Source: Candidatus Latescibacterota bacterium
GTDB lineage: Bacteria > Latescibacterota > UBA2968 > UBA8231
Assembly (NCBI GenBank): GCA_965242865.1
Contig: CBDETK010000013.1
Coordinates: 3,616,001-3,680,000 of the forward strand
Direction of reading: 5' to 3'
Length of the DNA: 64,000 bases
A program made the translations under genes and the position numbers. Every line of letters begins with the position of its first letter. Position 1 is the stretch's first letter. Below the pieces are notes generated by a model. It was not told where the DNA came from and searched no databases. It worked only from the letters and a program-made list of their open reading frames with translations. Below, one piece after another: positions 17,127-32,361 of this stretch.

Positions 17127-17249
17127 CGGATTTTCCTTTTCCGTGCTGGGTGCCGCTTCAAGGCTTCGCGCAGTTACCGTAGGGCGTGAGGCGTCTCGCC
17201 CCAGCGCACGGTGCCGATCAAGGAGCCGCGCTCCGACGGTCAAGTAGCG

Positions 17250-17905: not shown

Positions 17906-18097
17906 AGAGGGCTCGACGTCCAAAACTTCGATGCAGCCGGCCGAGGACATCTGCGGCCAGAACAGGCCTTTGAGGGATCCCTTTGGCTTGGATCATTTGG
18001 GGAGACTTTATACGGTTTAAACAGGTTACTCACTTTGATGATCGATGTTTCCCTCTCCTTTCTGGAAGTGGAAAATTTGAAAAGCAAGTAGCGCGGC

Positions 18098-20287
18098 TCA
18101 AAAGTTTGACATATAGCTAATTTTCGTCAGCAACACGCGCTCCACGGCCTCGTCCTTGGCCCGGTGTTCGTTATACGCGATGTAGAACCGGCTGTCGTTG
18201 ACGCCGAACCTGTAGCTCAAAAGGAGATTGAGATCGAGGGTGTCCTCGTGGAAGCTGCGCTGAAAAAAGCTGCGGACGAACACGTCGCGCTGGAAGAAGT
18301 ACGTCGTCCGCAGCAACAGGACGCGCTTGACTTCGTCCAACTCCCCGGAAGGGAAATACTCCCACACGGATTCGGTGCTAGAATCAAAAAAGAACCCCTT
18401 CCCCAAGTTGAATCGCAGTACGCCCGCTACGCGACGTATGTTGCCCAAATACTCGTCTTGAAAATCATATTGGTCTCGTAGTTGGCCGAAGACCTGGATC
18501 CGGTATCTGCGCCCGTTGCCGGTGTCAAAGCTAGCTTCAAACGAGTCGCCCTTGTACGTGTTTCGCTGCCACCGCATTTGCCAGTTCTTGTGATTGAACC
18601 ACGCGGACGAGTCATCCCATCGCCGCACAGACAGATCGACGTTGGTCCACTGCCATTCCCAGCCCTCTTCGTTGGTCCGCTGCTCGGCGACAAGCTCTTG
18701 GCCCAAGTAGATTTTTTGGATGCCGAGAAAATCGGGACGGAAGCTGTAGCTGCCATCAATGCCGAACTCTCGCTCGCCGACATCGGCGTCGTGCGGGATA
18801 AAGCCGATTTGATCGACGTTGAACCCCGGGTCAATCCAAGACGCCCAAGCCCGGAAGGGCCAGCGGTCGGAATTTCGCGTCAGGCGGCCGGTGTGCATTT
18901 TGTTTTGCTCGCCGACGTCCGCGCCAAAGCTCATGGCCGAACCGAGGAAGAGCTTGGCGTTTTCAGTCAGGCTCAACACGAGGTCGCTGCCGATGGCCTG
19001 CTGCCCTAGACTGTCATCCCTGCCGACCGCCAACGCGCCGATAGAGGAGTTGACCCCGAGGTCGCGCTTGAGGCGCAAGACGCCAAAATGCGGCTTGGTG
19101 CCATCCTCTTGGCGGTTGCGCGCCGCGATCAGGCCGAGGCTGTTCTTGCCGATCTTACCCGTTATTTTGCTGCCGACATCTGGGTCGCTAATCCGGCGAC
19201 TGTAAAAGAGATCCATCGGCGTAAAGAGCGTTTGCCCTTCGAGGAAGAAGGGCCGCTTCTCTCTAAGGTAGAGTTCAAACCGCGTCAGGTTGATTTGGCT
19301 TTCGTCGGCTTCGATGTGGGCAAAGTCTGGGTTGAGGGTGGCGTCGAGGGTGAGGTTGGAGGCGATGCCGTACTTCAGGTCGAGTCCCAAGTCGCCGGTC
19401 CACCCTTCGGTGGGCTGATCGCGCCGCTTTTCGTAACGCCCGGTCACATAAGGCCGGGTCTCTAAATGCAGCCCCTGTTTGATGCGGCCAATGCCGTGGA
19501 GGTGGCCGGCCTTGGACACCGTTAAGAGGTAGCGGACGTCTCTGGAGATAAACGCCCAGTTGCTGTTCTCGGTCCCGGTCCGGGCGATGCGTTGGACGTT
19601 GAGCCCCCACGTGTGCTGTTCGGATTCGGGGAAGCGCAGGGTCTTGAACGGGATGGCGAGCTCGGCACTCCAGCCGCGGTCGTGAAGGTGGGTCTCGGCC
19701 TGCCAGACGCCGTCCCAGTTCTGGTCGATGCCGCCCCAGCCGCCCGCCCCGTCGTCTTGGACGCGAAAATCGTTTTGGATGCCATAAGCGTTTATGTAGA
19801 AGCCGTAGGCGTTTTGGTGATCGTGATAGGTGTCTAGCACGAGGCCGACTAAGTCCAGCGGCGCGAACCGGCCATCTCGCTCCACCATGCGTCCTTCTAT
19901 GTTACTGGGTTCCTCGTCTAGCATGTCGAGGCCGATGTACAGGTAATCGGCGTCGTATAAGACGCGGATGAAGGTTTGGTTGGTGGCGGCGACGCCCTCA
20001 TGGGGGTCGATCAAAATGAAGCCGGTCGAAGGGGTGGCGATCTTCCAGCATTCGTCGTTTAGGGCACCATCTACTTTCGGTGGGATGTGCGTCTTGAAGG
20101 CGTCCATCTCTTTGTCGCTCTCGTGAGCCGGTGCGGACGGTGCGACGACGAGCATGGCCCAAGAGAGTAGAACCGCGAGGATGCGCTTGGTTGCATAAGC
20201 TGGGTTCGCTGTCATACTGGCCCTAATGCCGGGTGGCAGCCCTGAGCCATCCGTGGTGCTAAGCAGACATCCACTGTTCACAACCAT
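18098..20287 (-). CDS. DUF5916 protein with carbohydrate-binding family 9-like N-domain (probable outer-membrane protein)
   Basis: PKVDGAL...W, LDTYHD, WSAELAIPFKTLRF, DATLNPDFAHIEAD, EKRPFFLEG, LFYSRRI; ends in F. Confidence 0.8.
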   Translation of the reverse strand: MVVNSGCLLSTTDGSGLPPGIRASMTANPAYATKRILAVLLSWAMLVVAPSAPAHESDKEMDAFKTHIPPKVDGALNDECWKIATPSTGFILIDPHEGVAATNQTFIRVLYDADYLYIGLDMLDEEPSNIEGRMVERDGRFAPLDLVGLVLDTYHDHQNAYGFYINAYGIQNDFRVQDDGAGGWGGIDQNWDGVWQAETHLHDRGWSAELAIPFKTLRFPESEQHTWGLNVQRIARTGTENSNWAFISRDVRYLLTVSKAGHLHGIGRIKQGLHLETRPYVTGRYEKRRDQPTEGWTGDLGLDLKYGIASNLTLDATLNPDFAHIEADESQINLTRFELYLREKRPFFLEGQTLFTPMDLFYSRRISDPDVGSKITGKIGKNSLGLIAARNRQEDGTKPHFGVLRLKRDLGVNSSIGALAVGRDDSLGQQAIGSDLVLSLTENAKLFLGSAMSFGADVGEQNKMHTGRLTRNSDRWPFRAWASWIDPGFNVDQIGFIPHDADVGEREFGIDGSYSFRPDFLGIQKIYLGQELVAEQRTNEEGWEWQWTNVDLSVRRWDDSSAWFNHKNWQMRWQRNTYKGDSFEASFDTGNGRRYRIQVFGQLRDQYDFQDEYLGNIRRVAGVLRFNLGKGFFFDSSTESVWEYFPSGELDEVKRVLLLRTTYFFQRDVFVRSFFQRSFHEDTLDLNLLLSYRFGVNDSRFYIAYNEHRAKDEAVERVLLTKISYMSNF

Positions 20288-20382: not shown

Positions 20383-22206
20383 CTATTTATATCTATCGGC
20401 CTGCATTTTGAACATTGAAGCGTACTTCCCATCCGCCGCCATGAGTTCCGCGTGACTGCCGTCTTCGGCAATACTCCCTTTGTCCAGAACGATAATGCGA
20501 TCGGCCATTTTGACGGTGGAAAGCCGGTGGGATATGAGCAATGTTATCTTGCCCTGCGTCAGTCCTTTGAACCGAAGATACATAGAATACTCTGCCTCGG
20601 CATCTAAGGCAGATGTAGGTTCATCGAGAATGAGTAAACCCGCATCGCTTCTGACGAAGGCTCTCGCCATCGCAACTTTCTGCCATTCTCCTTCAGATAG
20701 GTCAACGCCGCCAGCAAACTGTCTGCCTAATAGGGTGGAGTAGCCGTTAGCTAGCTTGGCAATAAGAGGGGTAGCCATACCCTTCTCGGCAGCTTCCTTT
20801 ATTAAGGCCAGATCGTCCACATTTTCTACTTTTCCGATTCCTATATTCTCGCGTACCGTCAGACTGAAACGCGAGAAGTCTTGAAAAATAGCTGAAATAT
20901 TGTTCCTCCAAGAATCGACTTCGTATTGTCTCAAATCAACTCCATTGATAAGGATACATCCGCTCGTCGGATCGTAGAAGCGACACAACAATTTGACAAT
21001 AGTGCTCTTTCCGGCTCCGTTGTCGCCTATCAAGGCGACAGTCTCGCCGGCGTTTATGGTGAAAGATACCCCTCCTAAAATTTCAGTCGCGCTTTCGGGA
21101 TAAGAGAAGTGGACATTCCTAAATTCAATAGTGGCCAGAGGTTTTTGGTGCTCGTGTGCTTCCAGTTCAGCCTTGGTCAATACAGGTTTGAGATTCAAAA
21201 ATTTCATAAAATCTCTATACTGAAAAGCCACCTCGGATAATTGGCCGCTCATCAAGGTGAACATCCAAAGAGTTTCCTGAACGGTTGTAACTGCTGAAAA
21301 ATAAAGCGCGATATCACCCGGTGTTATATCTCCTCTGGTGACGAGGTAGGTCACATAGACATACATACTAGCTAGCCCAATTCCACTCAACAAGGCAAAT
21401 TTTGACGTTAAGTGAGCGTGATCTATTTTTACAACCTTTACTGTTTTTAGGATTTTGTCGAACCCCGTGCTATATCGGTTTATGAAATACTTTCCGATAT
21501 TTAATGTCTTTATTTCTTTGATGGTCTTGGGATCGACCATTATCTGGAAGTAATAGTCGAGCTTACGAGATTCCGGCACATTGCTCCACATGACATCGTA
21601 CGATTTTTTATAATGGCGAAGCTGGACAATCAGGTGAGGGATAGAAACAATCACTAGTACCAAAGGTATAACCCAGTCTATTTTGAATAAGAGAAACAAA
21701 ATAAAAATCAGTGTGACGAAATTGCGAATTGAGGCTGAGATGAGCCAGAGCATAGTTTCAGGTAGAAACGTATGACGTTGCAGATATTGAAGGCGGTCGT
21801 AGAATTTAGGGGTTTCAAAGTAAAAAAGTCCGGGTAAAGAGGCTGAAGTCTCCATAATCATTTGATCGACTTTTCTTTGCAAACGATCGCACAGAGTTGT
21901 TCTAATCGCTTCACTTGCCGGGTTTATAATGAAATAGGCTACTTGAGAAAAAATAAAAATACCTCCCCAAAAAATGTGGCGATACGTAGCACCATCTTCC
22001 TGCGCTTGGTTGGTATCTATAATCGAGTACGAGATTTGATCGACGACGTACTTGACGACTAAAGCCGATAGCCCCGGTAGGATGCTTGCTAAAGTAAGCA
22101 AAAGAATAAACGCGATTGTCAGAAAGGCATCAGCTTTCCATGCTAAGTAAATAATACTACCACTAGCTCTTACCAGTTGTTTCGTTTGACTGATTAGCCG
22201 GTTCAT
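20383..22206 (-). CDS. ABC exporter (TMD+NBD), lasso cluster D2
   Basis: GDNGAGKST, LSEGEWQK, LILDEPT, ISHR. Confidence 0.92.
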   Translation of the reverse strand: MNRLISQTKQLVRASGSIIYLAWKADAFLTIAFILLLTLASILPGLSALVVKYVVDQISYSIIDTNQAQEDGATYRHIFWGGIFIFSQVAYFIINPASEAIRTTLCDRLQRKVDQMIMETSASLPGLFYFETPKFYDRLQYLQRHTFLPETMLWLISASIRNFVTLIFILFLLFKIDWVIPLVLVIVSIPHLIVQLRHYKKSYDVMWSNVPESRKLDYYFQIMVDPKTIKEIKTLNIGKYFINRYSTGFDKILKTVKVVKIDHAHLTSKFALLSGIGLASMYVYVTYLVTRGDITPGDIALYFSAVTTVQETLWMFTLMSGQLSEVAFQYRDFMKFLNLKPVLTKAELEAHEHQKPLATIEFRNVHFSYPESATEILGGVSFTINAGETVALIGDNGAGKSTIVKLLCRFYDPTSGCILINGVDLRQYEVDSWRNNISAIFQDFSRFSLTVRENIGIGKVENVDDLALIKEAAEKGMATPLIAKLANGYSTLLGRQFAGGVDLSEGEWQKVAMARAFVRSDAGLLILDEPTSALDAEAEYSMYLRFKGLTQGKITLLISHRLSTVKMADRIIVLDKGSIAEDGSHAELMAADGKYASMFKMQADRYK

Positions 22207-24065
22207 CTTTTATATTGCTTCGCTTGCATATTATACAATTCTGAGTAAACTCCTCGGAGATTGATCAGGGCACTATGGTTGCCTTCTTCTACGATACGGC
22301 CCCCTTCCAAGACTATGATTCTATCCACTACATGGGCTGTGGATAGCCGGTGGGATATGATCAGCGTGACCTTGTTCTTCGTTAAATCGCGAAAGTGGAG
22401 ATACGTTTCGTATTCGCTTTGCACATCTAGTGCTGCCGTGGGTTCATCCAGAATCAAAATCCGTGCATCTCTAAAAAAAGCACGGGCGATAGCCAGTTTT
22501 TGCCATTGGCCAATGGACAATTCAGTGCCTCCCTCAAACTGTTTTCCGAGGAGGGTGGCAAATTTATTTGGAAGTTTTTTAATAAAATCAGCTCCTGCTT
22601 GGTCTGCGGCCTCTTTTATCTTCTTCTTTTTTATAAGGCTTAGATTCCCCAACCCTATGTTTTCTTCGACCGTCAATTGATATCGGTTATAGTCTTGAAA
22701 AACAATTCCTATATTCTTTCGCAGTTCATCGAGGTCAAAGTGGCTGATTGGAATCCCATTGATCAGAATCTGTCCGCTGTGCGGATCGTACAAACGGACC
22801 AAGAGTTTGACAATAGTGGTCTTGCCAGCACCGTTTCTTCCCACTAGGGAAACTGATTCGTTGAAACTGATCGAAAAGGATACCTGATTTAATATCAGAC
22901 GGTCTGTTCTAGGGTATCTAAAACTCACCTCCTTAAAGTCAACGCGCTCGATAAAATCTGGGAAGGATCTCATTTTTTGATTGGAAATTATTTTAATAGC
23001 AGGTTTGGCTTGCAGAAGTGCAAAAAGATGAGAGAGCAACCTACCTCTTTGGAAAAGCATAGCAACGCCGAACATGCACTCGTTTGAATACATCCACAAC
23101 TGTATCGCTGCCGTTAGATAAGCGACTAAAGATCCGACAGTTAGCAATCCTTCCGTGGCTTGATGGACTAGATGGCTATAGACTGCATATAGGCCCACGC
23201 TACCAAATACGGTACACAAGGACAGCCAGAGAAACTCTCTGAAACGGACATTCCACAGAGTCGCCGTTATCTTCTTGAAAGTCTCATCGTACCGCAATAA
23301 AAAGAAACGGTACAGTCCCAGTAATTTTACATCCTTAGCGACTTCATACGAAAGCATCTGATTGCGGTAATAATCGAGCTTCCTCGCTTCAGGAGCCTGA
23401 TGTTGTATAGCAATGCCGGCCCTATTGGTGAAGACGTAATTCACTAAAGCATACGGTATTATTGTTAAAAGAAAAAAACCAGCAAAAATAAAATCGAGGG
23501 TGCTTAAAAACATGGCAATAAATACTATTTGCAATACATATTTACATGTATCAAAACCAAATATAACCACATCCGCAACGTTGGGCTGAATCCTTTGAAT
23601 TTGCCGTAATTGGTCGTGAAATTTCGGGTTTTCAAAATGCACCAGATCGGGCAACCCATCAACCGCATCCATCGTCAAGGTCGCGATATAACCTTTCATT
23701 TTATCCGCTAAAATACTTTGAAGGGCTAACGCTATAGGGGAAGTAATCGCGGTTAAGACAATGATGCACACCAATGCTATAAGATATAATAAAATGGAGT
23801 CGATGTCTCTATTTTCCATCTTGGATATTTTGATAGCATCATCGATCACAAATTTCATCAAATAAAGTTTCAAGGCCGGTAATATACTTTGTATGAGGGT
23901 CAGAGTGGCCATGCCAGACAATAAAGACAGTGGTGCCACCTGCCATATCATTACCGCAGTTTTACCTATCGCCGTACTAGCACTTTTTAACTCTTTGATA
24001 GAAGGCCACCAAGATTCGAGTTCTATTTTTTTATTTTTGTCCATTACCTTGGAATCCATTGCCAA
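22203..24065 (-). CDS. ABC exporter (TMD+NBD), lasso cluster D1
   Basis: GRNGAGKTT, LSIGQWQK, ILDEPT; overlaps both neighbours. Confidence 0.92.
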   Translation of the reverse strand: MAMDSKVMDKNKKIELESWWPSIKELKSASTAIGKTAVMIWQVAPLSLLSGMATLTLIQSILPALKLYLMKFVIDDAIKISKMENRDIDSILLYLIALVCIIVLTAITSPIALALQSILADKMKGYIATLTMDAVDGLPDLVHFENPKFHDQLRQIQRIQPNVADVVIFGFDTCKYVLQIVFIAMFLSTLDFIFAGFFLLTIIPYALVNYVFTNRAGIAIQHQAPEARKLDYYRNQMLSYEVAKDVKLLGLYRFFLLRYDETFKKITATLWNVRFREFLWLSLCTVFGSVGLYAVYSHLVHQATEGLLTVGSLVAYLTAAIQLWMYSNECMFGVAMLFQRGRLLSHLFALLQAKPAIKIISNQKMRSFPDFIERVDFKEVSFRYPRTDRLILNQVSFSISFNESVSLVGRNGAGKTTIVKLLVRLYDPHSGQILINGIPISHFDLDELRKNIGIVFQDYNRYQLTVEENIGLGNLSLIKKKKIKEAADQAGADFIKKLPNKFATLLGKQFEGGTELSIGQWQKLAIARAFFRDARILILDEPTAALDVQSEYETYLHFRDLTKNKVTLIISHRLSTAHVVDRIIVLEGGRIVEEGNHSALINLRGVYSELYNMQAKQYKR

Positions 24066-25003
24066 AGGGTCGAGTGGTTGAACTTAGTTATCTGCTTAGT
24101 CCCCAATTCAAATCCTTTGTAGAGAACTTCGACATCCCACTTCCAAATACAACCAGATGCTCCCGGACTAGCAATTAACCGGACGTCAACTCTGTCGTTT
24201 TCGTTGATGGGTAATGGCTTATAAATGGGTAAAAATATATTGTCCCAAGATGCCGTCTTTGAAGGAGGTGCATTAGTAATATATATGTCGTCAAATAGAC
24301 ACGCTCTAAACCATCCGCAAAGCCCTTGAAGTGTACCTTCTCTTTTTATTTTAAATGAAAATTTTGGACTTGCAAATCCAGATTTCTTTTTAGTATGGAA
24401 ATTGATCTGATGCACTGTTTGAGGTTCACTTAAGAAGTAAGACGGTTTTGCTCTAGTGCTATACACTTCATTCAGAGCCATTTCTCTTACACAAGAAAAA
24501 TCTATTCCGTACACATCTATACTCCATATATCTACTTCGCCATATAGTTGGTCATCTTCGACAGGTACGAGTATCATTTGTAAGCTAGTTGGTACTATCT
24601 TGCCGTTCTTCTTTAGAAATCTGTCACGGGCATCTGATATTGTCTCCACCACATTTTGGCCGAGCCCAAATTTTGAAATTAATTCAGAGATTATGACATC
24701 TGCCTTTTGTGGAATTTCGACATTTTGAGATTCGTCATTAATAAAAGTGATCTGTCTTGTGAAATTATTGCATTTAGCAATCTTTTCCGCCACTTTTACC
24801 ATTGCTGTCCTTTCAATCGCGTAAACTCGCTTTGCGCCAGCTTGGCACGCGAAGAAGGCCAATAATCCACTGCCCGTCCCAATATCGACAACAACGTCTC
24901 CTGGATTAACGCTACGCATTATTGCTTCTCTGTATAGCTGGTTGCGTAATGTATCTCCGACTAATAGTCGATGAAACGAGACACTGCTGAAATCTTCTGA
25001 CAT
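24044..25003 (-). CDS. Protein-arginine N-methyltransferase (PRMT)-like SAM-dependent methyltransferase
   Basis: H....D..R...Y..AI helix, VVDIGTGSGLLA, AGAKRVYAIE, DVIISE, ARDRFLKKNG..VP, beta-barrel GLCGWF and ASW loop (THW/FSW equivalent). Confidence 0.8.
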   Translation of the reverse strand: MSEDFSSVSFHRLLVGDTLRNQLYREAIMRSVNPGDVVVDIGTGSGLLAFFACQAGAKRVYAIERTAMVKVAEKIAKCNNFTRQITFINDESQNVEIPQKADVIISELISKFGLGQNVVETISDARDRFLKKNGKIVPTSLQMILVPVEDDQLYGEVDIWSIDVYGIDFSCVREMALNEVYSTRAKPSYFLSEPQTVHQINFHTKKKSGFASPKFSFKIKREGTLQGLCGWFRACLFDDIYITNAPPSKTASWDNIFLPIYKPLPINENDRVDVRLIASPGASGCIWKWDVEVLYKGFELGTKQITKFNHSTLWQWIPR

Positions 25004-25176
25004 TTTGTACCCTCGTTAATCTTAATCTCTTAAAAATAACAAATCTGCCTCAAATCAGGCTATGCTTCTACCTCGATAGGAGAGTTTTGGATAATATGCT
25101 CTTTTCCCGCGAAAACGGGAATCCAGCCGGTATCGTTTAGACGCAAAGGACAACCATCAGAGTTTTCAGACAGCTT

Positions 25177-25288
25177 TGCTCTGTTGAAAAGGCTTATTTA
25201 TTAGCTTGGTTCGCTCCATTATTCTATAATAACATCGTAGGAGCAAGCTATACAAGAAGCCTCCTTAACTCTGCTTTTCAACAGAGCA
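25177..25288. mobile_element. 112-bp MITE
   Basis: Perfect 15-bp TIR tgctctgttgaaaag/cttttcaacagagca flanked by a 9-bp direct repeat agacagctt (25168-25176, 25289-25297). Confidence 0.8.
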
Positions 25289-25297
25289 AGACAGCTT

Positions 25298-25465
25298 CTA
25301 AGAAGCGTTCTTAAATAGGTATTCGGGGTCTCCGGGGTCTCAATCGGCTCAGGCTATTTAGGGCCGCGGCCATCTTCGCCCTATGAAAAACGCTGGACGC
25401 CAAGGCCGCTCGACAGCCTCGCCAAGCACCAAGCGTCCAACAGGGATTTTAAAAAGGCTTCTTAG
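25298..25465. mobile_element. Second MITE-like element
   Basis: Imperfect 18-bp TIR (16/18) ctaagaagcgttcttaaa / tttaaaaaggcttcttag; the right end overlaps the stop codon of 25462-26517. Confidence 0.55.
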
Positions 25466-26517
25466 TTTTCTATTTTTAAAACTTCCAATTTTCTAGTTCC
25501 GCTCATAGCGGCCGATTTAACGCCAGCATAAATCTCACCTTGGCTACCTTCTACTAAGCGGTATATTTCTCCATATTCTCTGTCTTTCTCCAGTTCGATC
25601 CAAACCTCTCTACATTTCCCATTCTCTCTCATCAACAGGAGTTTTACTCCACCTTTTCTCTGGAAATATGGAAGAGATATCAACATATCGCTGTCCCTTT
25701 GTAAAATCGATTGAGTAAAGCTTTTTCCAGCTTTAAGGTACTCGTCATCTATCTTACCATAAGTTACAACTCTATCTTCTCGAGTAAACAAGTGTATTGT
25801 ACCTGTAGCATCCCGGATAATGCGGCTTCCATCTTTCATAATTCCGACACACCTGCCCTCAGACTCTGTAGGCAAGCGGGCAACTTCGATTTCTTTTTTT
25901 TCTTCCAAAGTATAGATGGTCCCTTCTCTTCCCAACCATAAAATCTTACTATTTTGCCACCAGATGCTGTAAGGAGGCTTTGTACAGCCCCATACCTCAG
26001 CAACGCATTCTGATTCATTTGTACTGACATCAACTCGGTAGACTTGGTCATGTGGATATGCTATAGCGTAGAAGATAGGCTCTCTTGGCACCTTCGCCAG
26101 AGATCTAATCCCTTGTCTTTCTGCTACAAATCCCAATCTTCGGGGTTTCCACTCAGGGGATGAGCAGCTAAAAATGTACCCACCTTTATACTCATAACTA
26201 GGATCTTGGGTGATATTGGGCGTGGGACCATGGTGGGTAGCTCCGTATAAAATGCCATCTTCTCGCAGCAGAGACATATACACTTTAGAGTGAAATCTGG
26301 GTTCTGAAGCCAGATCTAGATCCGATGCGAGCATGACTCTCTTACTAATGTGGGATAGCGTATTGATTGCATACATCTGACAAGCCCGTTGTTTAAAACC
26401 CCACGTCGACAATGGAACAAAAAGAGTCTCATCAATGCATTCCATGTCCCAGATAACGGCTAACTGATTTTCTTTATCCACATACGAAGCGATTATATTT
26501 GCCTTCCAACGTTCCAT
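25462..26517 (-). CDS. Hypothetical beta-propeller-like protein in lasso cluster
   Basis: 351-aa ORF, co-oriented, with RBS; repeated DG.LYG / G.IY / QVYRVD blade-like segments. Confidence 0.6.
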   Translation of the reverse strand: MERWKANIIASYVDKENQLAVIWDMECIDETLFVPLSTWGFKQRACQMYAINTLSHISKRVMLASDLDLASEPRFHSKVYMSLLREDGILYGATHHGPTPNITQDPSYEYKGGYIFSCSSPEWKPRRLGFVAERQGIRSLAKVPREPIFYAIAYPHDQVYRVDVSTNESECVAEVWGCTKPPYSIWWQNSKILWLGREGTIYTLEEKKEIEVARLPTESEGRCVGIMKDGSRIIRDATGTIHLFTREDRVVTYGKIDDEYLKAGKSFTQSILQRDSDMLISLPYFQRKGGVKLLLMRENGKCREVWIELEKDREYGEIYRLVEGSQGEIYAGVKSAAMSGTRKLEVLKIEN

Positions 26518-26526
26518 TTTTTCCTC

Positions 26527-27795
26527 TTAAGATGGGTGTAGGTCACGTGGGGACTTTATTTTTACTTTTTCTTTTTTCTCTTTAGCACTCGCTACTTTAG
26601 CGGCGATTATCTGACCGATCTCTCCATTTCTTATAACTACCCCGTTTGCCGTTAATAGATGCACTCCATTCAACCATCTGTTCGGATTGCACAGTCGGCC
26701 TGATATGTCTTGATGAGGTATTCTTATCTCTCTTTTCCCAGGTACAATCTGACCCTCGGAATTTACGTCCAATACTAATATATCATCTTTGCTGTCGCTC
26801 TCAGAAGTTCCAATTACTCTTATCAGGGCATCCAAGCTATCGCCTTGGAAAAGAGCATTCATCTTTCTAAAAAAATAGCCCATCGGGACCTGTAACTGAT
26901 GTTCGAATATTCTTTCTGCTATAATTTCTATACCTTCTTCGCTACTCACTACCTGATCTAACAGGATGTTGAGATTAGCGAAACGCCCCAGTTCCAAGTC
27001 GCTACCTATGATAGAAGCCGTCAAGCTCTGCATGAACACGGCTGCTTCATTCGCCAAGAGGAGGAAAGAATCGATAAGGTCTGGAACCCGGAGAGGTAAG
27101 CCCAATAAATCTGTTGTTATGGCGCGGTCATTCGCGCTTTTCCAAAGACCCATGGGTTGGGGGCCATTATCTTTATACGGCCTAATCGTCATTAGTGGTC
27201 TCGAGCCATCAGTCGAAAGAGACTGCGCCATTCGCTGAATAAAAGGATAAAGTCTATCAATAACTGGATCGGCTAAATCACTATATGGATCGTCGAAACT
27301 TTTAAATAGGTTCAAGCGCGGTAAAGAGAAAAGCTTGTATTCTGTGGCTAGTATATCTTTAACCTCGTCTACTGCTTTTTCGTTGACTAAGATTTCTACC
27401 GAACGGGAGCGCCCAAAGGAATCCTCGCCATAAATCCTTCGTCCCAACCCCATAGTCGGCCATATGGTAAAATCAACTCCTCGTTTCAGCAACATGCTGC
27501 CAAACTGGCGTAGCAGCGCGAGTTGATATCTCTCCAGATTGGCCAGTTCCGCACGAAAAAACAGACACTCTGGATCTATCGGATTCAAAGTTTCCTCCGG
27601 GGGCCGCATAGTGTACTGGAACCGGTATCTCAGCATATGGGGCAACACACGCTGTTGCAGCAGCACAGATAGTAGCGGCCTATTTTCGCTCTGGAGTATA
27701 TCGGGCGGTTTGAGGGAGTCTATATAAGCCAGATCGAATTTGGGTTTAGCCAATTCAACCATTATCTCCCATACATCTTCTTTCAATTCTTCCAT
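26527..27795 (-). CDS. Nucleotidyltransferase-family-like protein (degenerate)
   Basis: LLKRGVDF....GLGRRIYG....GRSRSVEILV resembles the NTP_transf_5 signature (KG..l...Y....R...DxD.l) but lacks the DxD; this family is common in lasso clusters. Confidence 0.5.
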   Translation of the reverse strand: MEELKEDVWEIMVELAKPKFDLAYIDSLKPPDILQSENRPLLSVLLQQRVLPHMLRYRFQYTMRPPEETLNPIDPECLFFRAELANLERYQLALLRQFGSMLLKRGVDFTIWPTMGLGRRIYGEDSFGRSRSVEILVNEKAVDEVKDILATEYKLFSLPRLNLFKSFDDPYSDLADPVIDRLYPFIQRMAQSLSTDGSRPLMTIRPYKDNGPQPMGLWKSANDRAITTDLLGLPLRVPDLIDSFLLLANEAAVFMQSLTASIIGSDLELGRFANLNILLDQVVSSEEGIEIIAERIFEHQLQVPMGYFFRKMNALFQGDSLDALIRVIGTSESDSKDDILVLDVNSEGQIVPGKREIRIPHQDISGRLCNPNRWLNGVHLLTANGVVIRNGEIGQIIAAKVASAKEKKEKVKIKSPRDLHPS

Positions 27796-27810
27796 TTCCA
27801 GTCACTTCTA

Positions 27811-28464
27811 TCAATTGTGGTTCTGTTTTTTGTCTTGAATTAGTTTCGCTCCGACCTCCAAAAGTGCTTGGGGGCCATTTCGTCGCAATCCTTTAATGTA
27901 CATCTCAGGCTTATTAGCTCGATATTGGACTTCTTCAGCGAAGAAATAGGCAATGTCGGTGTTGGCCTTGATCCACCTTTCTTTTTGAACTAGATTTTGG
28001 ATAGCTCTTCGGATAGCGAGTGGGTCAGTCCAGTTTGCTTTGAAAACCACCTTACCCTCTTTGTCAATTATCCAACTCATATTGGGTCGGGACCCGTAAA
28101 GCTTGTGAGCTTTTTCATCAAACCTATCGACCCATATATCGCGCTTTACACCATATAATCTCTTGAATGCCCATGCGTGATCTATTTTCTGTTCAATTGA
28201 GCGGTGTTCAGGCCAGTATTCTCCTGGATGTGCCTCGGATGTATATACAAAAACTAGTTCAAAACCAAATTCTGAAAACTCTACATTTAAATATTCCATC
28301 GCTGGAATGACATCGACACAGTAGGGACAAGTAATACTTCCAAATTCGAGGACCACATGTTGTCGGCCGATATAGTCCGATAAGTTGGCTTCTCCCTTTC
28401 CCAGATTAATAGCGCAGAAATCTGGAGCTTGCTCAAGCAGTTTTATCCTGTCTGTGAAACTCAT
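27811..28464 (-). CDS. Thioredoxin-fold, deiodinase-like protein with CxxC
   Basis: APDF, VLEFGSITCPYC, VYTSEAHPGE, YGSRPN..WIIDKEGKVVF. Confidence 0.75.
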   Translation of the reverse strand: MSFTDRIKLLEQAPDFCAINLGKGEANLSDYIGRQHVVLEFGSITCPYCVDVIPAMEYLNVEFSEFGFELVFVYTSEAHPGEYWPEHRSIEQKIDHAWAFKRLYGVKRDIWVDRFDEKAHKLYGSRPNMSWIIDKEGKVVFKANWTDPLAIRRAIQNLVQKERWIKANTDIAYFFAEEVQYRANKPEMYIKGLRRNGPQALLEVGAKLIQDKKQNHN

Positions 28465-28507
28465 AACAGCGATCTTAAGTTTAACTGTAGGTCTACTAGT
28501 CTTACCG

Positions 28508-28552
28508 AAAAGTGCAATGAGCCTTAATTTTCATCATTAAGGCTCATTGCAC
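28508..28552 (-). terminator. Stem-loop with short U-tract downstream of precursor genes
   Basis: Perfect 17-bp stem 28512-28528/28536-28552 followed by TTTT on the minus strand. Confidence 0.75.
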
Positions 28553-28610
28553 AGACTCAGGAGGGGTGTCTCAAACCTTAACCATCAGGTTATTTGGTTT
28601 GGATTGAGGG

Positions 28611-28754
28611 TTAGCAATTGACTTTCCGAGTACAATTGGCATCATAGGCCTGGCTACCGCCAGCAGTGACTAGCCCCACGGCATTGCCGAACCTAACCAC
28701 GACGGGAATGACATATTCCTTTTTCGCGGTCTTTGCCTGTTCTTCCTTACTCAT
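28611..28754 (-). CDS. Lasso peptide precursor A2 (47 aa; not in ORF track)
   Basis: Hand translation MSKEEQAKTAKKEYVIPVVVRFGNAVGLVTAGGSQAYDANCTRKVNC; AAGGAGGTG RBS; YxxPxVxxxG leader; Asp ring acceptor. Confidence 0.9.
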   Translation of the reverse strand: MSKEEQAKTAKKEYVIPVVVRFGNAVGLVTAGGSQAYDANCTRKVNC

Positions 28755-28792
28755 GATTTATCACCTCCTTCCTTCTAGGTTTCATCTTGTGT

Positions 28793-28954
28793 CTAACCGC
28801 AGTGTTGACGGGTCCCTCCTGTTTCGAACTGGCAGTTGCCATTACCAGCGGCGAGCGTGGCAACATTGCCGAAATTGACTAGTACAGGGGACTGATAGTT
28901 CTTCTTTTTTGGAGGAACCTGTCCCTGCTCGTGAGGTTGGTGCTTCTTGTGCAT
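28793..28954 (-). CDS. Lasso peptide precursor A1 (53 aa)
   Basis: MHKKHQPHEQGQVPPKKKNYQSPVLVNFGNVATLAAGNGNCQFETGGTRQHCG; AAAGGAGA RBS; YxxPxLxxxG leader; core G1...E8. Confidence 0.9.
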   Translation of the reverse strand: MHKKHQPHEQGQVPPKKKNYQSPVLVNFGNVATLAAGNGNCQFETGGTRQHCG

Positions 28955-29012
28955 TTTCAGTCTCCTTTCACTCCAGTGGCTAAAGTTGTATTGACACCGA
29001 CTCCTGAGTCGA

Positions 29013-30974
29013 TTAGATGCCATATTTTCTATGCATTCTATCGAGCCATAGCTCGATAGAAAGAGCATTTAGAAGATTCCCCAGATGTGTCCAATTACCT
29101 TGCATCCAATGAGATAGACTTCGTGTAAATTTATCGTGATCTAAATAGCCTCTCCTAACCGTTTCAAATCCTCTCGTCTGGCCCTTCTCTATGAGACGGG
29201 GCAATTCTTGCTGTAAGCCTCTAAGAGCTGGACGACCGAAATCAGGGCCTCTTCGACGCGTCCTCACTTCTTCAGGTAGTATATCTTTTAGTGCCTCCCG
29301 CATAATTACTTTTCTATGACGTCTACCTGAAGGCACTTCAATATAGGTCTTCAAGCCCATAGGTACACCTAGCATATATTCAAGAAGACGCTTATCATAG
29401 TATGGCATACGTATTTCGATAGATTGAGGCGACGCGACATATTCATCCATCCAACAGTATCCTGTGTCTTCATATAACGACCGATACTCAATCCGCATAG
29501 ACTGAACTGGGAAATGACGATCTGGAAGTAATTCTCGGAGTCTTTTACGGGCACCCATTTTTTTGGCAAAATCGGGATTCACCCAGTCTACCATAACAGG
29601 GCCTCCAAAGGAATCGAAATAATGCCAGTATTCAGGCTTGACGTGTAAAATAGGACTCAAGATAGTTTGCCAAAACTCGGGAACGAGGGGTTTAATAGCA
29701 AAATTTATTAAAGCATGTAGGTACGTCTGGTTCCTTGCATATGACCACATTTTAAGCTCACGCGTTAGCTCTTTGAACCTTCCCTTACGTAATAGATCGG
29801 CTAGATATAAGGGATTACCTTGTAGAATGGCATCTCCACCATCCCCCCTAAGCCAAACTCGTGCGCCAAATCTATATACAGCCGAAACAGTACGTAATAC
29901 CTGATCATAAGCTGAGAATCCACCACTCGGCTCATCTGTAAGGGGAGCATGTTGAAGCTGATTCTGAAAAAGGAAAAAGTCGTCCGACGGAATTTCAATG
30001 GTATTTTTGATTTGGTATTTATCTACTACTTGCCGTTGAAAATACCGCTCATCTGACTCAGGAAAGTCATCAAAGACCATTGAGCAGGTTGTAAAGCCGT
30101 TAGAAGGAATCTCGCCTTGATTATATATCTCTTGTGCCATAGACACAATCGAGGACGAGTCCAAACCACCGCTGAGGTCTGAGACCACGGGTTTCATACA
30201 ACGCAACCGGCACCTAACCGCCTCGCGAAAAAGTTCCCGTAGCCGTTCTTGATAGTCTTCGGTTTTCTGATAGCGAACCTCAGAAACTTCACGCGGGTCC
30301 CAATAAGCAATAGGGTCACTTACCCCATGCCGATCTACTTTTATATAATGAGCCGGTGGTAATCTCAATATATCCTCAAATACAGTAGTTGGAGTAGATA
30401 GCGGTCCAACTGCACAATATAACAGATAGTCAAGGATATAGTTATCATTTATTTTCATCGGAAAGGATGGTTCCTGAAAAATCTGTCTAATCGAAGACCC
30501 CCATATCAAAGTATTCTTGAACTTAGTATAATAAAACGGACGGATCCCCATAAAATCACGTGCACAGAGCAGTGTTTCCGTTTTCGCATCCCAGATGGAA
30601 AATGCGAAATCCCCAACTATTTTTTTTAAGCATTCAATATTCCATTTTTCGTAAGACAGCAAAATTAACTCTGCATCTGTCGGGGAAAATTGAGGGGTTT
30701 TATCTTTTTTTAATAGAGAGATCAGCTCATCCCGATTATCTACGCGCCCATCGCAGACTATCCAGATATTGGAACCCCTAATCGACAAGGGCTGGATCTC
30801 CCTGTAGGATTCTTCGGTCGTATGAAATTGGCAATGAGCCATACCTATATGGTATAGTACAGTCTGATTTACCCGTTCAGCACCCCGATGAGAAATTTGC
30901 ATAATCATATTTTTCAGCATATTCTCATCAATCGGTTTTTTGTCTAGGTTTAATATCCCCGCAATACCAGCCAT
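29013..30974 (-). CDS. Lasso peptide macrolactam cyclase (asparagine synthetase-like, C protein)
   Basis: AsnB fold; N-terminus MAGIAG lacks the Ntn Cys; SDLSGGLDSSS; adjacent to B1/B2 and precursors. Confidence 0.92.
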   Translation of the reverse strand: MAGIAGILNLDKKPIDENMLKNMIMQISHRGAERVNQTVLYHIGMAHCQFHTTEESYREIQPLSIRGSNIWIVCDGRVDNRDELISLLKKDKTPQFSPTDAELILLSYEKWNIECLKKIVGDFAFSIWDAKTETLLCARDFMGIRPFYYTKFKNTLIWGSSIRQIFQEPSFPMKINDNYILDYLLYCAVGPLSTPTTVFEDILRLPPAHYIKVDRHGVSDPIAYWDPREVSEVRYQKTEDYQERLRELFREAVRCRLRCMKPVVSDLSGGLDSSSIVSMAQEIYNQGEIPSNGFTTCSMVFDDFPESDERYFQRQVVDKYQIKNTIEIPSDDFFLFQNQLQHAPLTDEPSGGFSAYDQVLRTVSAVYRFGARVWLRGDGGDAILQGNPLYLADLLRKGRFKELTRELKMWSYARNQTYLHALINFAIKPLVPEFWQTILSPILHVKPEYWHYFDSFGGPVMVDWVNPDFAKKMGARKRLRELLPDRHFPVQSMRIEYRSLYEDTGYCWMDEYVASPQSIEIRMPYYDKRLLEYMLGVPMGLKTYIEVPSGRRHRKVIMREALKDILPEEVRTRRRGPDFGRPALRGLQQELPRLIEKGQTRGFETVRRGYLDHDKFTRSLSHWMQGNWTHLGNLLNALSIELWLDRMHRKYGI

Positions 30975-31022
30975 CTTATTTTCCTTAATCGGTCAATCGG
31001 TCGTTTTATCCGTAATCGTGGA

Positions 31023-31463
31023 TCAGCAAACAGATATTACCGAATACCTATCTCTAAGATCCACAGAATCATTTACTACTTTGCCATAGCACTCAACCCA
31101 AGCATGAAAAACTAGCGGAGGGAACTTCGTATATCCGATACACAACTCAGCCGGAAACCTATACTTTCTAAGCAAGGAACAGATAACCAAAGACCTTTCA
31201 AGGCACTTTACGCGCCTTACATAAATTCGTGCGGCCTGCTTACCAATTTCTGAGATAAGGTCTACCAAATCAACTTCAGAAACCATTTGGTTTTCGTTCC
31301 TTGGCTTCGTAATAACGTGCTGCTTCACTAGGCTCTGGGCACATTTTCCAAAGCCGAACAGTCGCAGATATATATCGGTTTTTACATAGAGCGTGTACGC
31401 CTGTAAAAAAATGTAGAAATACTTTAGCCGCTTTTCAGGGGCCATTAAATTGGTGTCAGTCAT
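31023..31463 (-). CDS. Lasso peptide leader peptidase B2 (transglutaminase-like)
   Basis: KCLERSL, LCIG, FHAWVE...VVND (Cys-His-Asp). Confidence 0.92.
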   Translation of the reverse strand: MTDTNLMAPEKRLKYFYIFLQAYTLYVKTDIYLRLFGFGKCAQSLVKQHVITKPRNENQMVSEVDLVDLISEIGKQAARIYVRRVKCLERSLVICSLLRKYRFPAELCIGYTKFPPLVFHAWVECYGKVVNDSVDLRDRYSVISVC

Positions 31464-31746
31464 TTCGTATATCTAACACTCCGTTTTTATTTAACTCAGT
31501 TATCAGAGCTAATATATCTCCCCGTAACTGATCTTCGCCGACATCGTATTCCTCCATTAAATCTCTCAATATCTGCTCTATGGCTATACCGTCTTTTTTA
31601 TGATTCGCCAGTTCCCAGAAACTTTTACCGACAGCTACCAACCCATAGAACTCGCCGCTTTCAAAATTCAGGATCACCACATTTTCGCCATCTATTGTCG
31701 ATTCAACATGGTCTGGAATCGAAATCTTAGTTGAGGGATCTATCAT
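31456..31746 (-). CDS. Lasso peptide RRE / PqqD-family B1 protein
   Basis: DGENVVILNFESGEFYGL..VG..FWEL...L..EYDV....L..DI..LI.EL...G. Confidence 0.92.
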   Translation of the reverse strand: MIDPSTKISIPDHVESTIDGENVVILNFESGEFYGLVAVGKSFWELANHKKDGIAIEQILRDLMEEYDVGEDQLRGDILALITELNKNGVLDIRND

Positions 31747-31939: not shown

Positions 31940-32196
31940 ACTTGTCTCAAGTATTACCGGCAGGCCAACCCCGACGGGAGCGGCAATGTCCGTCTTGACG
32001 AGGTGACCATCGGCGAGGAGGGAAGGATTGTGTATCTGCGGGGGTACGGTTTTGTCCGAGTATTTCGGACTGTCTCCCGACACAGGGGGTTGAGGACGGA
32101 GATCGGTTGGTACGAGGCCAAGACCGCCATCGTCAGAGAGGCTGTACGCCGCTATCTCAGACAGCCCACCTACTACCTCAACCCAACTGCGTAGTC
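31940..32196 (+). mobile_element. IS701-family-like transposase remnant
   Basis: NPDGSGN...VYLRGYGFVRVFRTVS joined by a deletion to WYEAKTAIVREAVRRYL..P....PTA*; ends caactgcgta. Confidence 0.6.
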
Positions 32197-32351
32197 ACGC
32201 GCAACTGCTCGAAGTTGTCGCGATTGATCTGATCGGCTGGGGTGTAGCGGGTGCCGCCTCGGTCGGCTCCGTAATGCGGCCAATCAACGGCACCGGCAGA
32301 CGCGGCGAGCGACCACGACGCCAGCAAAATCCCACAGGCTCGTTTGTTCAT
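32196..32351 (-). pseudogene. 5' remnant of third PQQ-ankyrin gene
   Basis: MNKRACGILL...VDWPHYGADRGGTRYTPADQINRDNFEQLRV is closely similar to the start of 14178-17126 and is cut at the IS remnant. Confidence 0.85.
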
Positions 32352-32361
32352 GCTTTCTCCT

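Follow-up and report, generated by a model that had tools for sequence, protein, structure and literature searches.

A lasso peptide gene cluster from a Latescibacterota bacterium that encodes a PRMT-fold methyltransferase of a lasso-linked clade

The methyltransferases known from lasso peptide biosynthesis include the C-terminal carboxyl O-methyltransferase LasF/StspM (PMC9266682) and the PIMT-type aspartimide formers TceM/LihM (PMC13352647), all of them SAM-dependent tailoring enzymes encoded inside a lasso cluster. The methyltransferase described here (hereafter MT) resembles these enzymes in its location and cofactor but belongs to another fold family, that of the eukaryotic type I PRMTs (PRMT1, PRMT2, PRMT6, PRMT8, CARM1, yeast Hmt1), with which it shares a Rossmann SAM domain and a beta-barrel. 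StspM is set apart in that it was modelled on the mitomycin 7-O-methyltransferase, not on a PRMT (PMC9266682). MT reaches 19 bits with the PIMT model NF001453, the cut-off of which is 188, and the cores encoded in the window differ from the TceM/LihM systems in that they offer no surplus Asp or Glu from which an aspartimide could form. A search of the literature found no description of a lasso methyltransferase with the PRMT fold.

The window, a 64,000-nucleotide stretch from a Candidatus Latescibacterota bacterium, contains at positions 20383-31746 a complete lasso peptide cluster of eleven genes, all on the minus strand: B1, B2, C, two precursors, a CxxC thioredoxin/deiodinase-like protein, two orphans, MT and two ABC exporters. 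The original prediction had listed the same eleven genes on the same strand and had read them as a lasso cluster, a reading that is borne out by the Pfam and NCBIfam family matches. All eleven frames are open. The cluster is AT-rich, as had also been noted, with a GC content of 0.41-0.46 compared with about 0.58 and 0.64 in the flanks. It appears to have been acquired horizontally, apparently intact, because of this low GC content and because an orthologue, sought in 30 related genomes, was found in none of them (best match, 26.6 bits over 65 residues).

B1 (31456..31746; 96 aa) is a PqqD-like leader-binding (RRE) protein (PF05402, 51.1 bits, cut-off 23.4; NF033536 lasso_PqqD_Bac, 46.6 bits, under the cut-off of 80) and overlaps by 8 nt with B2 (31023..31463; 146 aa), a transglutaminase-like leader peptidase (NF033537 lasso_biosyn_B2, 78.2 bits, cut-off 33; PF13471, 75.4 bits). 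C (29013..30974; 653 aa) is an asparagine-synthetase-like lasso cyclase that matches PF00733 (Asn_synthase, 146 bits), GATase_7 and GATase_6; its top NCBIfam match is NF033535, the cyanobacterial-type lasso peptide isopeptide bond-forming cyclase, at 404.5 bits, under the cut-off of 525. Both precursor genes are preceded by GGAG-type ribosome-binding (Shine-Dalgarno) sites, AAAGGAG 7 nt before the ATG of A1 (28793..28954; 53 aa) and GGAGG before the ATG of A2 (28611..28754; 47 aa), and both are recognized by our own precursor HMM, with E-values of 6.8e-16 and 4.2e-13, respectively; A1 also shows a weak match to NF033528 lasso_cyano (24.8 bits, cut-off 33). The core register was fixed by the spacing of the conserved leader motif YxxPxLx3Gx5(T)x; neither A1 nor A2 retains the conserved Thr of this motif at leader position -2. 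The predicted core of A1 is GNGNCQFETGGTRQHCG, with an 8-residue ring G1-E8 and cysteines C5 and C16, and that of A2 is AGGSQAYDANCTRKVNC, with a ring A1-D8 and cysteines C11 and C17; the T12-R13 pair that the original prediction had found in both cores holds in this register. In the proposed pathway, B1 would bind the YxxPxLx3G leader of both precursors, B2 would next remove it, and C would then close the 8-residue macrolactam, G1-E8 in A1 and A1-D8 in A2.

A syntenic cluster (L083) is found in a Candidatus Poribacteria MAG (JAJDXV010000098.1), with the gene order A x4, GT1, B1, B2, C, Trx-like, GT28-like, MT, ABC, ABC. The identities to the window proteins are 50% for MT, 43% for C (over 652 aa), 44% for the Trx-like protein, 39% for B1, and 48% and 47% for the first and second ABC proteins, respectively, and the L083 cores, like those of the window, have an 8-residue ring and R13. 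The L083 cluster differs in having four precursor genes and a GT1 gene upstream of B1, two glycosyltransferases instead of the two orphan genes, and a Trx-like gene in which the codon of the first active-site Cys is an in-frame TGA; it also encodes a sugar nucleotidyltransferase. The 'unusual tailoring set' of the original prediction is only partly borne out: the Trx-like, MT and two ABC genes are kept in L083, whereas the 422-aa and 351-aa orphans are absent.

The Trx-like protein (27811..28464; 217 aa) is a thioredoxin-fold, deiodinase-like oxidoreductase with the active site FGSITCPYC that matches AhpC-TSA (41.1 bits), T4_deiodinase (39.7 bits) and Redoxin (34.2 bits), all above the cut-offs. 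In the fourth step, this CxxC protein may act on the core cysteines, in the simplest case forming C5-C16 in A1 and C11-C17 in A2. The labels previously given to the two orphans find no sequence support. The 422-aa protein (26527..27795; an open frame), taken for 'NTase-like', has no Pfam match at E<=10, and only the protein itself was retrieved from 5.8 billion clusters (word-index search) and 1.84 billion representatives (phmmer). Its language-model neighbours are PF14907 clusters in 28 of 30 matches (score 0.95); hhalign against three lasso-linked PF14907 proteins gives a probability of 0.6%, our own PF14907-type HMM an E-value of 0.92, and the single-sequence model, with a pLDDT of 35, is unusable. 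The 351-aa protein (25462..26517; an open frame), taken for a 'propeller', likewise retrieved only itself in the sequence search, its sole Pfam line being WDR55 at an E-value of 0.12; its atlas neighbours are unnamed, SMP-30-like, Reg_prop or WD40 clusters (0.94-0.96), a weak language-model lead with a recognition value of 2100, below the 2300 mark.

MT (24044..25003; 319 aa) matches PRMT5_C (55 bits) and PRMT_C (52 bits), both above the cut-offs. Among PDB sequences, phmmer retrieves 73 at E<=0.001, the best 60 of the 73 all being PRMTs, with PRMT6 at the top (2e-31), CARM1 at 3.4e-31 and E-values for the eukaryotic type I enzymes of about 1e-30. The predicted model (pLDDT 90.8) aligns in Foldseek with PRMT1/2/6/8/CARM1/Hmt1 at TMq 0.78-0.87 over 313-334 columns, with 22-25% identity. 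Thus, Pfam, phmmer and Foldseek all confirm the full PRMT layout claimed earlier, including the beta-barrel, and MT is therefore not PrmA-like. Unlike the eukaryotic type I PRMTs, MT is bacterial, is encoded within a RiPP cluster and is translationally coupled to an exporter, the predicted overlap with the first exporter gene amounting to 22 nt, with TTG as the exporter start. The two exporter half-transporters (22203..24065, 620 aa, ABC_tran 112.9 bits, MsbA-like NCBIfam matches all under the cut-offs; 20383..22206, 607 aa, ABC_tran 107.5 bits), the genes of which overlap by 4 nt, would form a heterodimeric pair that exports the product in the fifth step.

MT retains the SAM motifs, including motif I and the post-I Glu, along with D17, R20, the THW-loop Trp and E107, which corresponds to the first of the two Glu residues in the double-E loop. 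The sequences ISELISKFGLGQ (residues 105-116) and TASW (250-253) had been read correctly; their counterparts in the alignments with PRMT6 and CARM1 are the double-E loop and the THW loop, respectively. The differences from the PRMTs are Q116 in place of the second catalytic Glu, a Lys inside the double-E loop, and ASW followed by D-N in place of THW, with loss of the His. Q116 aligns with the CARM1 Glu in FNE, which we take to be E267. The CARM1(E267Q) variant serves as a catalytically inactive enzyme (PMC12685296).

The homologues of MT (n=184) include the clade of the window enzyme, 'E..Q', the 'D..x' clade and the canonical 'E..E' clade. When only loci with 5 kb or more of sequence on each side are counted, a lasso cyclase or precursor is present in 5 of 6 for E..Q and 10 of 12 for D..x, compared with 1 of 47 for E..E; the linkage of the MT gene to lasso clusters thus extends to many other genomes. 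Two of the three objections that the original prediction had raised against itself, a PrmA-like structure and the lack of such linkage elsewhere, do not apply because MT has the PRMT beta-barrel and the gene accompanies lasso clusters in other genomes. The E..Q rows belong to one clade (17 E..Q and one E..E, SH-like support 99) with conserved pocket residues: in a 12-sequence alignment, the Gln, the loop Lys (K111) and W-D-N, in which D254 adjoins the pocket Trp, are invariant, which suggests one chemistry for the clade. In the sixth step, MT would act as a SAM-dependent tailoring enzyme of a lasso-specific clade, with an arginine pocket putatively remodelled by the replacement of the second Glu by Gln and of THW by (A/P/T)(S/A)W-D-N, and by the clade-invariant loop Lys. 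Most of the relatives carry a C-terminal, winged-helix-like tail of ~67 aa that is absent from PRMTs; the window enzyme has no such tail, and for this reason it probably either takes the folded peptide without its leader as substrate or relies on B1. The D..A clade, a related one, has I-N-R-R-N in the place of the THW loop, and 15 of its 18 rows listed have a core that ends in -CL. The presence of MT relatives in lasso clusters of many uncultured bacteria points to an undescribed way to decorate lasso peptides.

Some of these clusters resemble the paeninodin/pseudomycoidin type, which combines an HPr-kinase-like kinase with the PsmN nucleotidyltransferase: PF14907 nucleotidyltransferases adjoin PRMT-fold MTs in the related clusters L002, L006 and L007 and were found with our own HMM in 18 of 43 D..x loci, and in E..Q clusters of the L086 type, kinase-like and sulfotransferase-like genes (names read by eye from N-terminal motifs) accompany cores that end in Ser or Thr. 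The window differs from this type in having no kinase and in that its 422-aa protein fails PF14907 by sequence.

Apart from the naming of the methyl acceptor, we consider this explanation of the cluster quite likely to be correct; with Arg13 included as the acceptor, the whole is possible but far from assured. Of the earlier interpretation, the lasso cluster, the PRMT layout and the lasso linkage stand, whereas the choice of Arg13 is still conjectural: Nω-methylation of this residue is the single most likely reaction, and a doubtful one at that. Arg13 occurs in all six cores of the window and L083, the only two clusters in the window's own subclade, and is the only identical non-ring column. 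A tail Arg is also present in three of the four cores beside canonical E..E enzymes (L085, L137, L161). Against Arg13 as the acceptor speak Q116, the lost His of the THW loop and, given the single chemistry suggested for the clade, the cores beside its other members: eight of the nine cores assigned to other E..Q clade members have no Arg, with none in the three L093/L202/L191 cores (GISY..D..NLTP) and, among six hand-picked L086-type cores, one only, in L193. An Arg conserved without exception directly beneath the ring, five residues past its acceptor, would also suit a steric plug, by analogy with Arg15 of capistruin.

Next in rank, and somewhat unlikely in itself, comes methylation of the lasso C-terminal carboxylate, which would yield a methyl ester as in lassomycin through an unrelated enzyme fold. 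No other nucleophile is shared by all 15 cores assigned to E..Q-clade clusters, and C-terminal methylation is already established in lasso peptides (PMC9266682). The pocket speaks in both directions: one carboxylate is lost (E to Q) and the invariant K111 is gained, but E107 is kept and D254 is gained beside the pocket Trp, both of which are unfavourable for anion binding. The I-N-R-R-N loop and the -CL ends in the D..A clade fit C-terminal carboxylate recognition; however, we know of no PRMT-fold carboxyl methyltransferase, and the invariance of R13 would be left unexplained.

A comparably low probability is assigned to methylation of another shared side chain (the amide of an Asn or Gln close to the C-terminus, a Cys thiol, a Thr hydroxyl or a His) or of an added group such as a sugar. 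Asn, Cys and Thr are present in 6/6 cores of the window and L083, and Asn or Gln lies 2-4 residues from the C-terminus in all nine cores of the window, L083 and the L093 type, but none of the candidate residues is positionally conserved. Because only one Cys occurs in each of two L083 cores, disulfide formation cannot account for every Cys; yet the L093-type cores lack Cys altogether, as do five of the six L086-type cores, the remaining one, from L193, having two. An added sugar would be in line with the two glycosyltransferases and the sugar nucleotidyltransferase of L083, but Pfam detects no glycosyltransferase in the window cluster. Finally, it is quite improbable that MT is catalytically dead or nearly so, serving as a scaffold or chaperone, or that the cluster is a decaying passenger of an island: the change at the second Glu is the very one used to inactivate PRMTs by design (PMC12685296), two neighbouring genes are orphans without relatives and the leader -2 Thr is replaced in both precursors, but eleven of the eleven frames are open, the SAM-binding motifs are intact, the Gln is clade-wide rather than scattered, a 98% identical MT is present on another metagenome contig, and the MT-ABC-ABC module is conserved in L083.

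An inverted-repeat search revealed two features in the non-coding parts of the cluster. The 458-bp gap upstream of MT (25004..25461) contains a 16-nt perfect inverted repeat (25176-25191 / 25274-25289) and may provide MT-ABC-ABC with a promoter or regulatory region of its own. A perfect hairpin on the minus strand (28512..28552), with a 17-bp stem and a 7-nt loop followed by TTTTCGG, probably acts, downstream of the precursor genes, as an attenuator or terminator; across the region, terminator-like sites show no excess over shuffled sequences (11 vs 11.4), and therefore only this 17-bp stem stands out.

Family profiles and the precursor leader motif identify, among the 11 minus-strand reading frames at 20383-31746 of the window, the RRE protein (B1), peptidase (B2), cyclase (C) and precursors of a lasso peptide cluster, so that the original prediction of a lasso cluster with a PRMT-like methyltransferase at this position is borne out by both gene content and profile matches. 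B1 is a PqqD-like, leader-binding RRE protein (PF05402, 51.1 bits, cut-off 23.4), B2 is a transglutaminase-like Cys protease of the lasso_biosyn_B2 family (NF033537, 78.2 bits, cut-off 33) with CLERS and FHAW motifs in its translation, and C is an Asn-synthetase-like macrolactam synthetase (PF00733, 146 bits, plus a GATase domain), the top NCBIfam model for which, NF033535 for the cyanobacterial-type lasso cyclase, gives 404.5 bits and so stays below its own cut-off of 525. Profile searches also place two ABC half-transporters in the cluster. To judge from these genes, the machinery is an ordinary lasso core combined with a putative, undescribed family of tailoring enzymes.

Between the C gene and the gene for a 217-aa thioredoxin/deiodinase-like (Trx-like) protein lie two short genes, each with a GGAG-type ribosome-binding site upstream, that encode the lasso precursors A1 and A2; a perfect 17-bp hairpin with a T-run after it is located 3' of both. 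A precursor profile that was seeded with these two sequences and the four precursors of L083, a syntenic cluster in a Candidatus Poribacteria MAG (JAJDXV010000098.1), and run for four iterations over 27,784 small ORFs from all fetched loci recovered 48 ORFs, nearly all of which adjoin lasso genes and bear the leader Y-x-x-P-x-L-x3-G-x5-T-x; both window precursors match this HMM, as do 42 other ORFs that adjoin lasso genes. A1 and A2 retain the Y, P, L/V and G of the leader at the correct spacing, have Ala and Val, respectively, in place of the Thr at leader position -2, and carry E8 or D8 as the ring acceptor. The cleavage site and the 8-residue ring in the window peptides are fixed by the spacing from the conserved leader Gly, which gives the predicted cores GNGNCQFE-TGGTRQHCG for A1 and AGGSQAYD-ANCTRKVNC for A2, and in this register the previously noted T12-R13 pair is indeed common to both cores.

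The 319-aa SAM-dependent methyltransferase (MT; 24044..25003, minus strand) matches PF17286 (PRMT5_C, 55.2 bits) and PF22528 (PRMT_C, 52.2 bits) above the cut-offs, along with generic methyltransferase domains. A phmmer search against PDB sequences yields 73 matches at E<=0.001, and all 60 listed are PRMTs, the best among those listed being PRMT6 (2e-31), followed by CARM1, PRMT3, PRMT8 and PRMT1. The AlphaFold model of MT, built from a 30-sequence alignment (mean pLDDT 90.8), is superposed by Foldseek on PRMT1, 2, 6, 8, CARM1 and Hmt1 over 313-334 columns, with TM values of 0.78-0.87 for the 319-aa model. The PRMT_C/PRMT5_C matches and the full-length superposition on PRMTs indicate that the beta-barrel is present and thereby rule out a PrmA-like enzyme without the barrel. 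A PIMT-type aspartimide former was rejected as well, on account of the low score of NF001453 (19.2 bits vs the cut-off of 188) and of cores that have no spare Asp.

Motif I (VVDIGTGSG) and post-I (VYAIE) of MT pair with those of PRMT6 and CARM1, in columns that are invariant across 30 homologues, and the MT alignments show retention of motif I, D17, R20, the post-I Glu and E107, which is the first glutamate of the double-E loop. In place of the second glutamate this loop has Gln116, leaving one of the two that characterize the PRMT family, and the THW loop reads T-A-S-W, with Trp alone kept. Strictly speaking, the deviation of these two defining loops places MT outside the PRMT family. Of the full PRMT layout that had been claimed, the fold with its beta-barrel stands, as do the readings of Gln for the second Glu and of ASW, and an enzyme with this fold may catalyze PRMT-type arginine methylation.

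Relatives of MT are numerous, with 336 detected at E<=0.001 in the protein database among the candidates scored; one of these is 98% identical and resides on an 8-kb metagenome contig, and three more are 50-51% identical. A scan of genome contigs with the single MT protein as the query returned no relative, and it was the scans with alignment-derived patterns (80 loci per scan, two scans over species-representative genomes and one over metagenomes) that found them, some loci recurring between collections (e.g. L093=L202, L108=L213 and L231=L233). By the two double-E positions, 184 MT matches in 178 loci divide into 110 E..E, 17 E..Q (to which the window MT is to be added), 43 D..x and 14 other enzymes. 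When the window proteins were used as tblastn queries, 46 of 238 loci proved to have lasso genes. The fetched DNA includes a lasso cyclase or precursor for 8 of the 17 E..Q, 30 of the 43 D..x, 5 of the 110 E..E and 4 of the 14 other loci, and when the count is confined to loci flanked by 5 kb or more on each side, these numbers become 5 of 6, 10 of 12, 1 of 47 and 1 of 6, respectively. The linkage of this gene to lasso clusters elsewhere, which the Arg13 proposal presupposed, is thus clearly confirmed by the locus counts. In a FastTree phylogeny of 179 rows, a single clade (SH-like support 99) unites the 17 E..Q enzymes with 1 E..E enzyme, and within it the window MT pairs with that of L083 (support 98). 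Such a family-level pattern was unexpected, and it gives sharp and inexpensive experimental predictions. Nearly all of the clusters belong to uncultured Acidobacteriota, Myxococcota, Binatota, Thermodesulfobacteriota and Poribacteria, phyla whose peptide chemistry is largely unexplored.

Most of the MT relatives carry a C-terminal tail of ~67 aa that is missing from the window and L083 enzymes. Four of 21 tails match PF05402, with a best E of 0.0066, a weak winged-helix/PqqD similarity, and hhalign of the 21 tails against 19 B1 proteins gives a probability of 5%; given this low value and the few PF05402 matches, the tail is termed winged-helix-like, and its identification as an RRE was rejected.

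The gene order in L083, the MT of which is 50% identical to that of the window, is four precursors, a GT1 glycosyltransferase, B1, B2, C, Trx-like, GT28-like, MT, ABC, ABC, and its comparison with the window yields a conserved set consisting of A, B1, B2, C, Trx-like, MT, ABC and ABC. The unusual tailoring set originally proposed for the window is, accordingly, retained in part: the Trx-like protein and MT are conserved in L083, whereas the genes for the 422-aa and 351-aa proteins, although both intact within the window cluster, fall outside the shared set. The Trx-like protein, with the motif FGSITCPYC, is a thioredoxin-fold/deiodinase-like oxidoreductase by AhpC-TSA, T4_deiodinase and Redoxin profiles, all above cut-off; NF038285 (deiodinase_rel) scores 56.6 bits vs a cut-off of 250. 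In its L083 orthologue (L083:8124-8783, plus strand), the first active-site Cys corresponds to an in-frame TGA (FGSMT-TGA-PYC), and the L083 genome encodes SelB (360 bits vs a curated cut-off of 242), so that the L083 lasso cluster probably encodes a selenoprotein, and the Sec/Cys pair at the first active-site position supports a redox-active site. A SECIS-like element 13 nt 3' of the TGA has a 7-bp stem and folds no better than shuffled sequences (z 0.70). Disulfide formation is plausible as a role of the Trx-like protein but is not sufficient, because the number of Cys residues varies among the six window and L083 cores (2, 2, 1, 2, 3 and 1).

The 422-aa protein (26527-27795) has no relative but itself in 5.8 billion clusters or 1.84 billion representatives. 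It had been labeled NTase-like, but the profile of PF14907 (NTP_transf_5, PsmN-like) does not recognize it: there is no Pfam match at E<=10, hhalign against lasso-linked PF14907 proteins gives a probability of 0.6%, and an HMM built in this analysis for such proteins gives it an E of 0.92, the sole lead to this family being language-model neighbors (28 of 30 matches, score 0.95). The single-sequence AlphaFold model of this protein, at a pLDDT of 35.4, is too poor to use. The 351-aa protein (25462-26517) likewise has no relative but itself in the 5.8 billion clusters and shows a weak propeller-like lead (WDR55 at E 0.12, and an Atlas lead below the recognition mark).

Apart from the acidic ring acceptor, Arg13 is the sole column that is identical across the six cores of the window and L083, and its methylation by the window MT is a possible, if doubtful, activity, slightly ahead of the other candidates. 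Arguing for an arginine acceptor are the PRMT fold, the retention of E107, a clade-specific Asp after the pocket Trp (D254) that possibly replaces the lost acid, and the presence of Arg in the tail of three cores (L085, L137 and L161) out of the four that were found next to canonical E..E enzymes. Several observations argue against it. An invariant, bulky Arg soon after the ring also fits a steric plug, as in capistruin. Next to the other members of the E..Q clade, most cores are free of Arg: three distinct L093/L202/L191 cores (GISYNPLDGISNLTP and variants) contain neither Arg nor Lys, and of six cores picked by eye via a W-x-x-P-x-L leader (L086, L098, L182, L183, L193 and L197), only that of L193 has an Arg. 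In the alignment, Gln116 pairs with the Glu of the CARM1 F-N-E motif, which we take to be E267. CARM1(E267Q) serves as a catalytically inactive form (PMC12685296). Nor is the Gln a one-off, given that S-E-L-I-x-K....G-Q and W-D-N are invariant throughout a 12-sequence alignment of E..Q enzymes, which suggests that the whole clade shares a single remodelled pocket. Finally, the sole nucleophile common to all 15 cores is the C-terminal carboxylate. Methylation of this carboxylate appears rather unlikely, slightly more so than that of Arg13, and methylation of another residue or of an appended group is about as probable as that of the carboxylate; an inactive MT is distinctly improbable. The complex predicted for MT (30-row alignment), SAM and the A2 precursor, with scores of 0.00 and 0.02 where the mark is 0.32, weighs on neither side. 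The PRMT fold and the lasso linkage hold, and side-chain methylation of Arg13, the acceptor part of the original prediction, is a candidate activity, so that the prediction is supported in part.

Among the other clades, the D..A enzymes have the loop A-D-Q-I-G-x-F-G-F-E-A-G, with THW replaced by I-N-R-R-N, and adjoin Met-rich cores that end in -CL in 15 of the 18 rows listed; an Arg-rich loop of this kind hints that the C-terminal carboxylate is what these enzymes recognize. The Met-rich -Cys-Leu cores next to a D..A MT occur in L003, L092, L100, L108, L120, L125, L126, L130, L161, L196, L203, L205, L216 and L232. One of these clusters, L161, encodes two PRMT-fold MTs (L161:2123-3271 and 4423-5559), one D..A and one canonical E..E, and its core SGASAGTDGIRMMVACL has both R11 and the -CL end, which makes it a natural test case for two specificities. 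The S-D-x-R-G enzymes adjoin Lys-rich tails, often beside a PF14907 nucleotidyltransferase.

The specificities of these enzymes can be read jointly, in a scheme that we consider quite plausible, if somewhat short of an even prospect: PRMT-fold MTs would be a widespread, undescribed class of lasso tailoring enzymes with at least three specificities readable from the active-site loops, namely Arg for canonical E..E enzymes, cores ending in -Cys-Leu for the D..A enzymes with the Arg-rich loop, and, for the E..Q clade of the window, either methylation of Arg13 with the acid relocated (to D254) or chemistry new for the fold. The window MT would have lost a leader-binding tail and would recognize the threaded peptide itself. 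Two types of lasso methyltransferases, the C-terminal carboxyl type LasF/StspM and the PIMT-type aspartimide formers, appear in the available part of a 2022 review (PMC9266682). The available part of a June 2026 review lists C-terminal methylation, hydroxylation, epimerisation, a second isopeptide bond, aspartimide, prenylation, acetylation and cross-linking, and side-chain N-methylation and PRMT-fold enzymes are absent from that part (PMC13352647). The literature that could be searched contained no account of a lasso enzyme that resembles PRMTs or methylates arginine; a listing in a genome-mining table is possible. Lasso peptides are prized as very stable scaffolds and antibiotics, and every new tailoring reaction broadens the range of products that can be made. 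A bacterial relative of the PRMTs devoted to a small peptide that is genetically encoded would also be a simple system for studying the choice of nucleophile by the PRMT pocket, and the naturally occurring variants (E-to-Q, D..A and E..E), each with a different type of core, amount to a ready-made set of specificity experiments.

Within the E..Q clade, the MT gene in L086, L098, L182, L183 and L197 is preceded by its own PqqD-like gene (~1-3 kb upstream), and the cores of these loci, with the W-x-x-P-x-L leader, are short, end in Ser or Thr and contain Arg in none of the five cases. Judged by eye from N-terminal motifs, the genes in clusters of the L086 type include HPr-kinase-like and, in L182 and L193, also sulfotransferase-like ones. 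In L163:750-2941 and L165:72-2260, a tailed E..Q MT is followed by a conserved Lys-rich ORF of 69-71 aa and a 223-aa ORF; these short contigs contain no lasso gene and may represent another peptide context for the clade.

The GC content is 41-46% in the cluster vs 58% and 64% in the flanks, and no MT orthologue was found in 30 related genomes, of which 18 share the genus and 12 the class (best match 26.6 bits over 65 residues), which together indicate that the cluster is a horizontally acquired island. A direct repeat of ~360 bp (16900-17260 and 32137-32520; 79% mean column identity, with a 123-nt core at 87%) flanks a 15.2-kb stretch; it covers the last part of one PQQ-dehydrogenase-type gene and the first part of the one that follows. 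The PQQ-dehydrogenase start at ~32178-32330 looks truncated. Between the repeat copies lie an IS-like ORF (17469-18020), a DUF5916/CBM9 gene with host-like GC (18098-20287) and the AT-rich lasso cluster. The IS-like ORF, of 183 aa and with no Pfam match, is overlapped by a 27-nt inverted repeat (17382-17408 and 17848-17874; 89% complementary, with 439 nt between the arms), and this repeat may be what is left of a mobile element that bordered the inserted stretch on its left.
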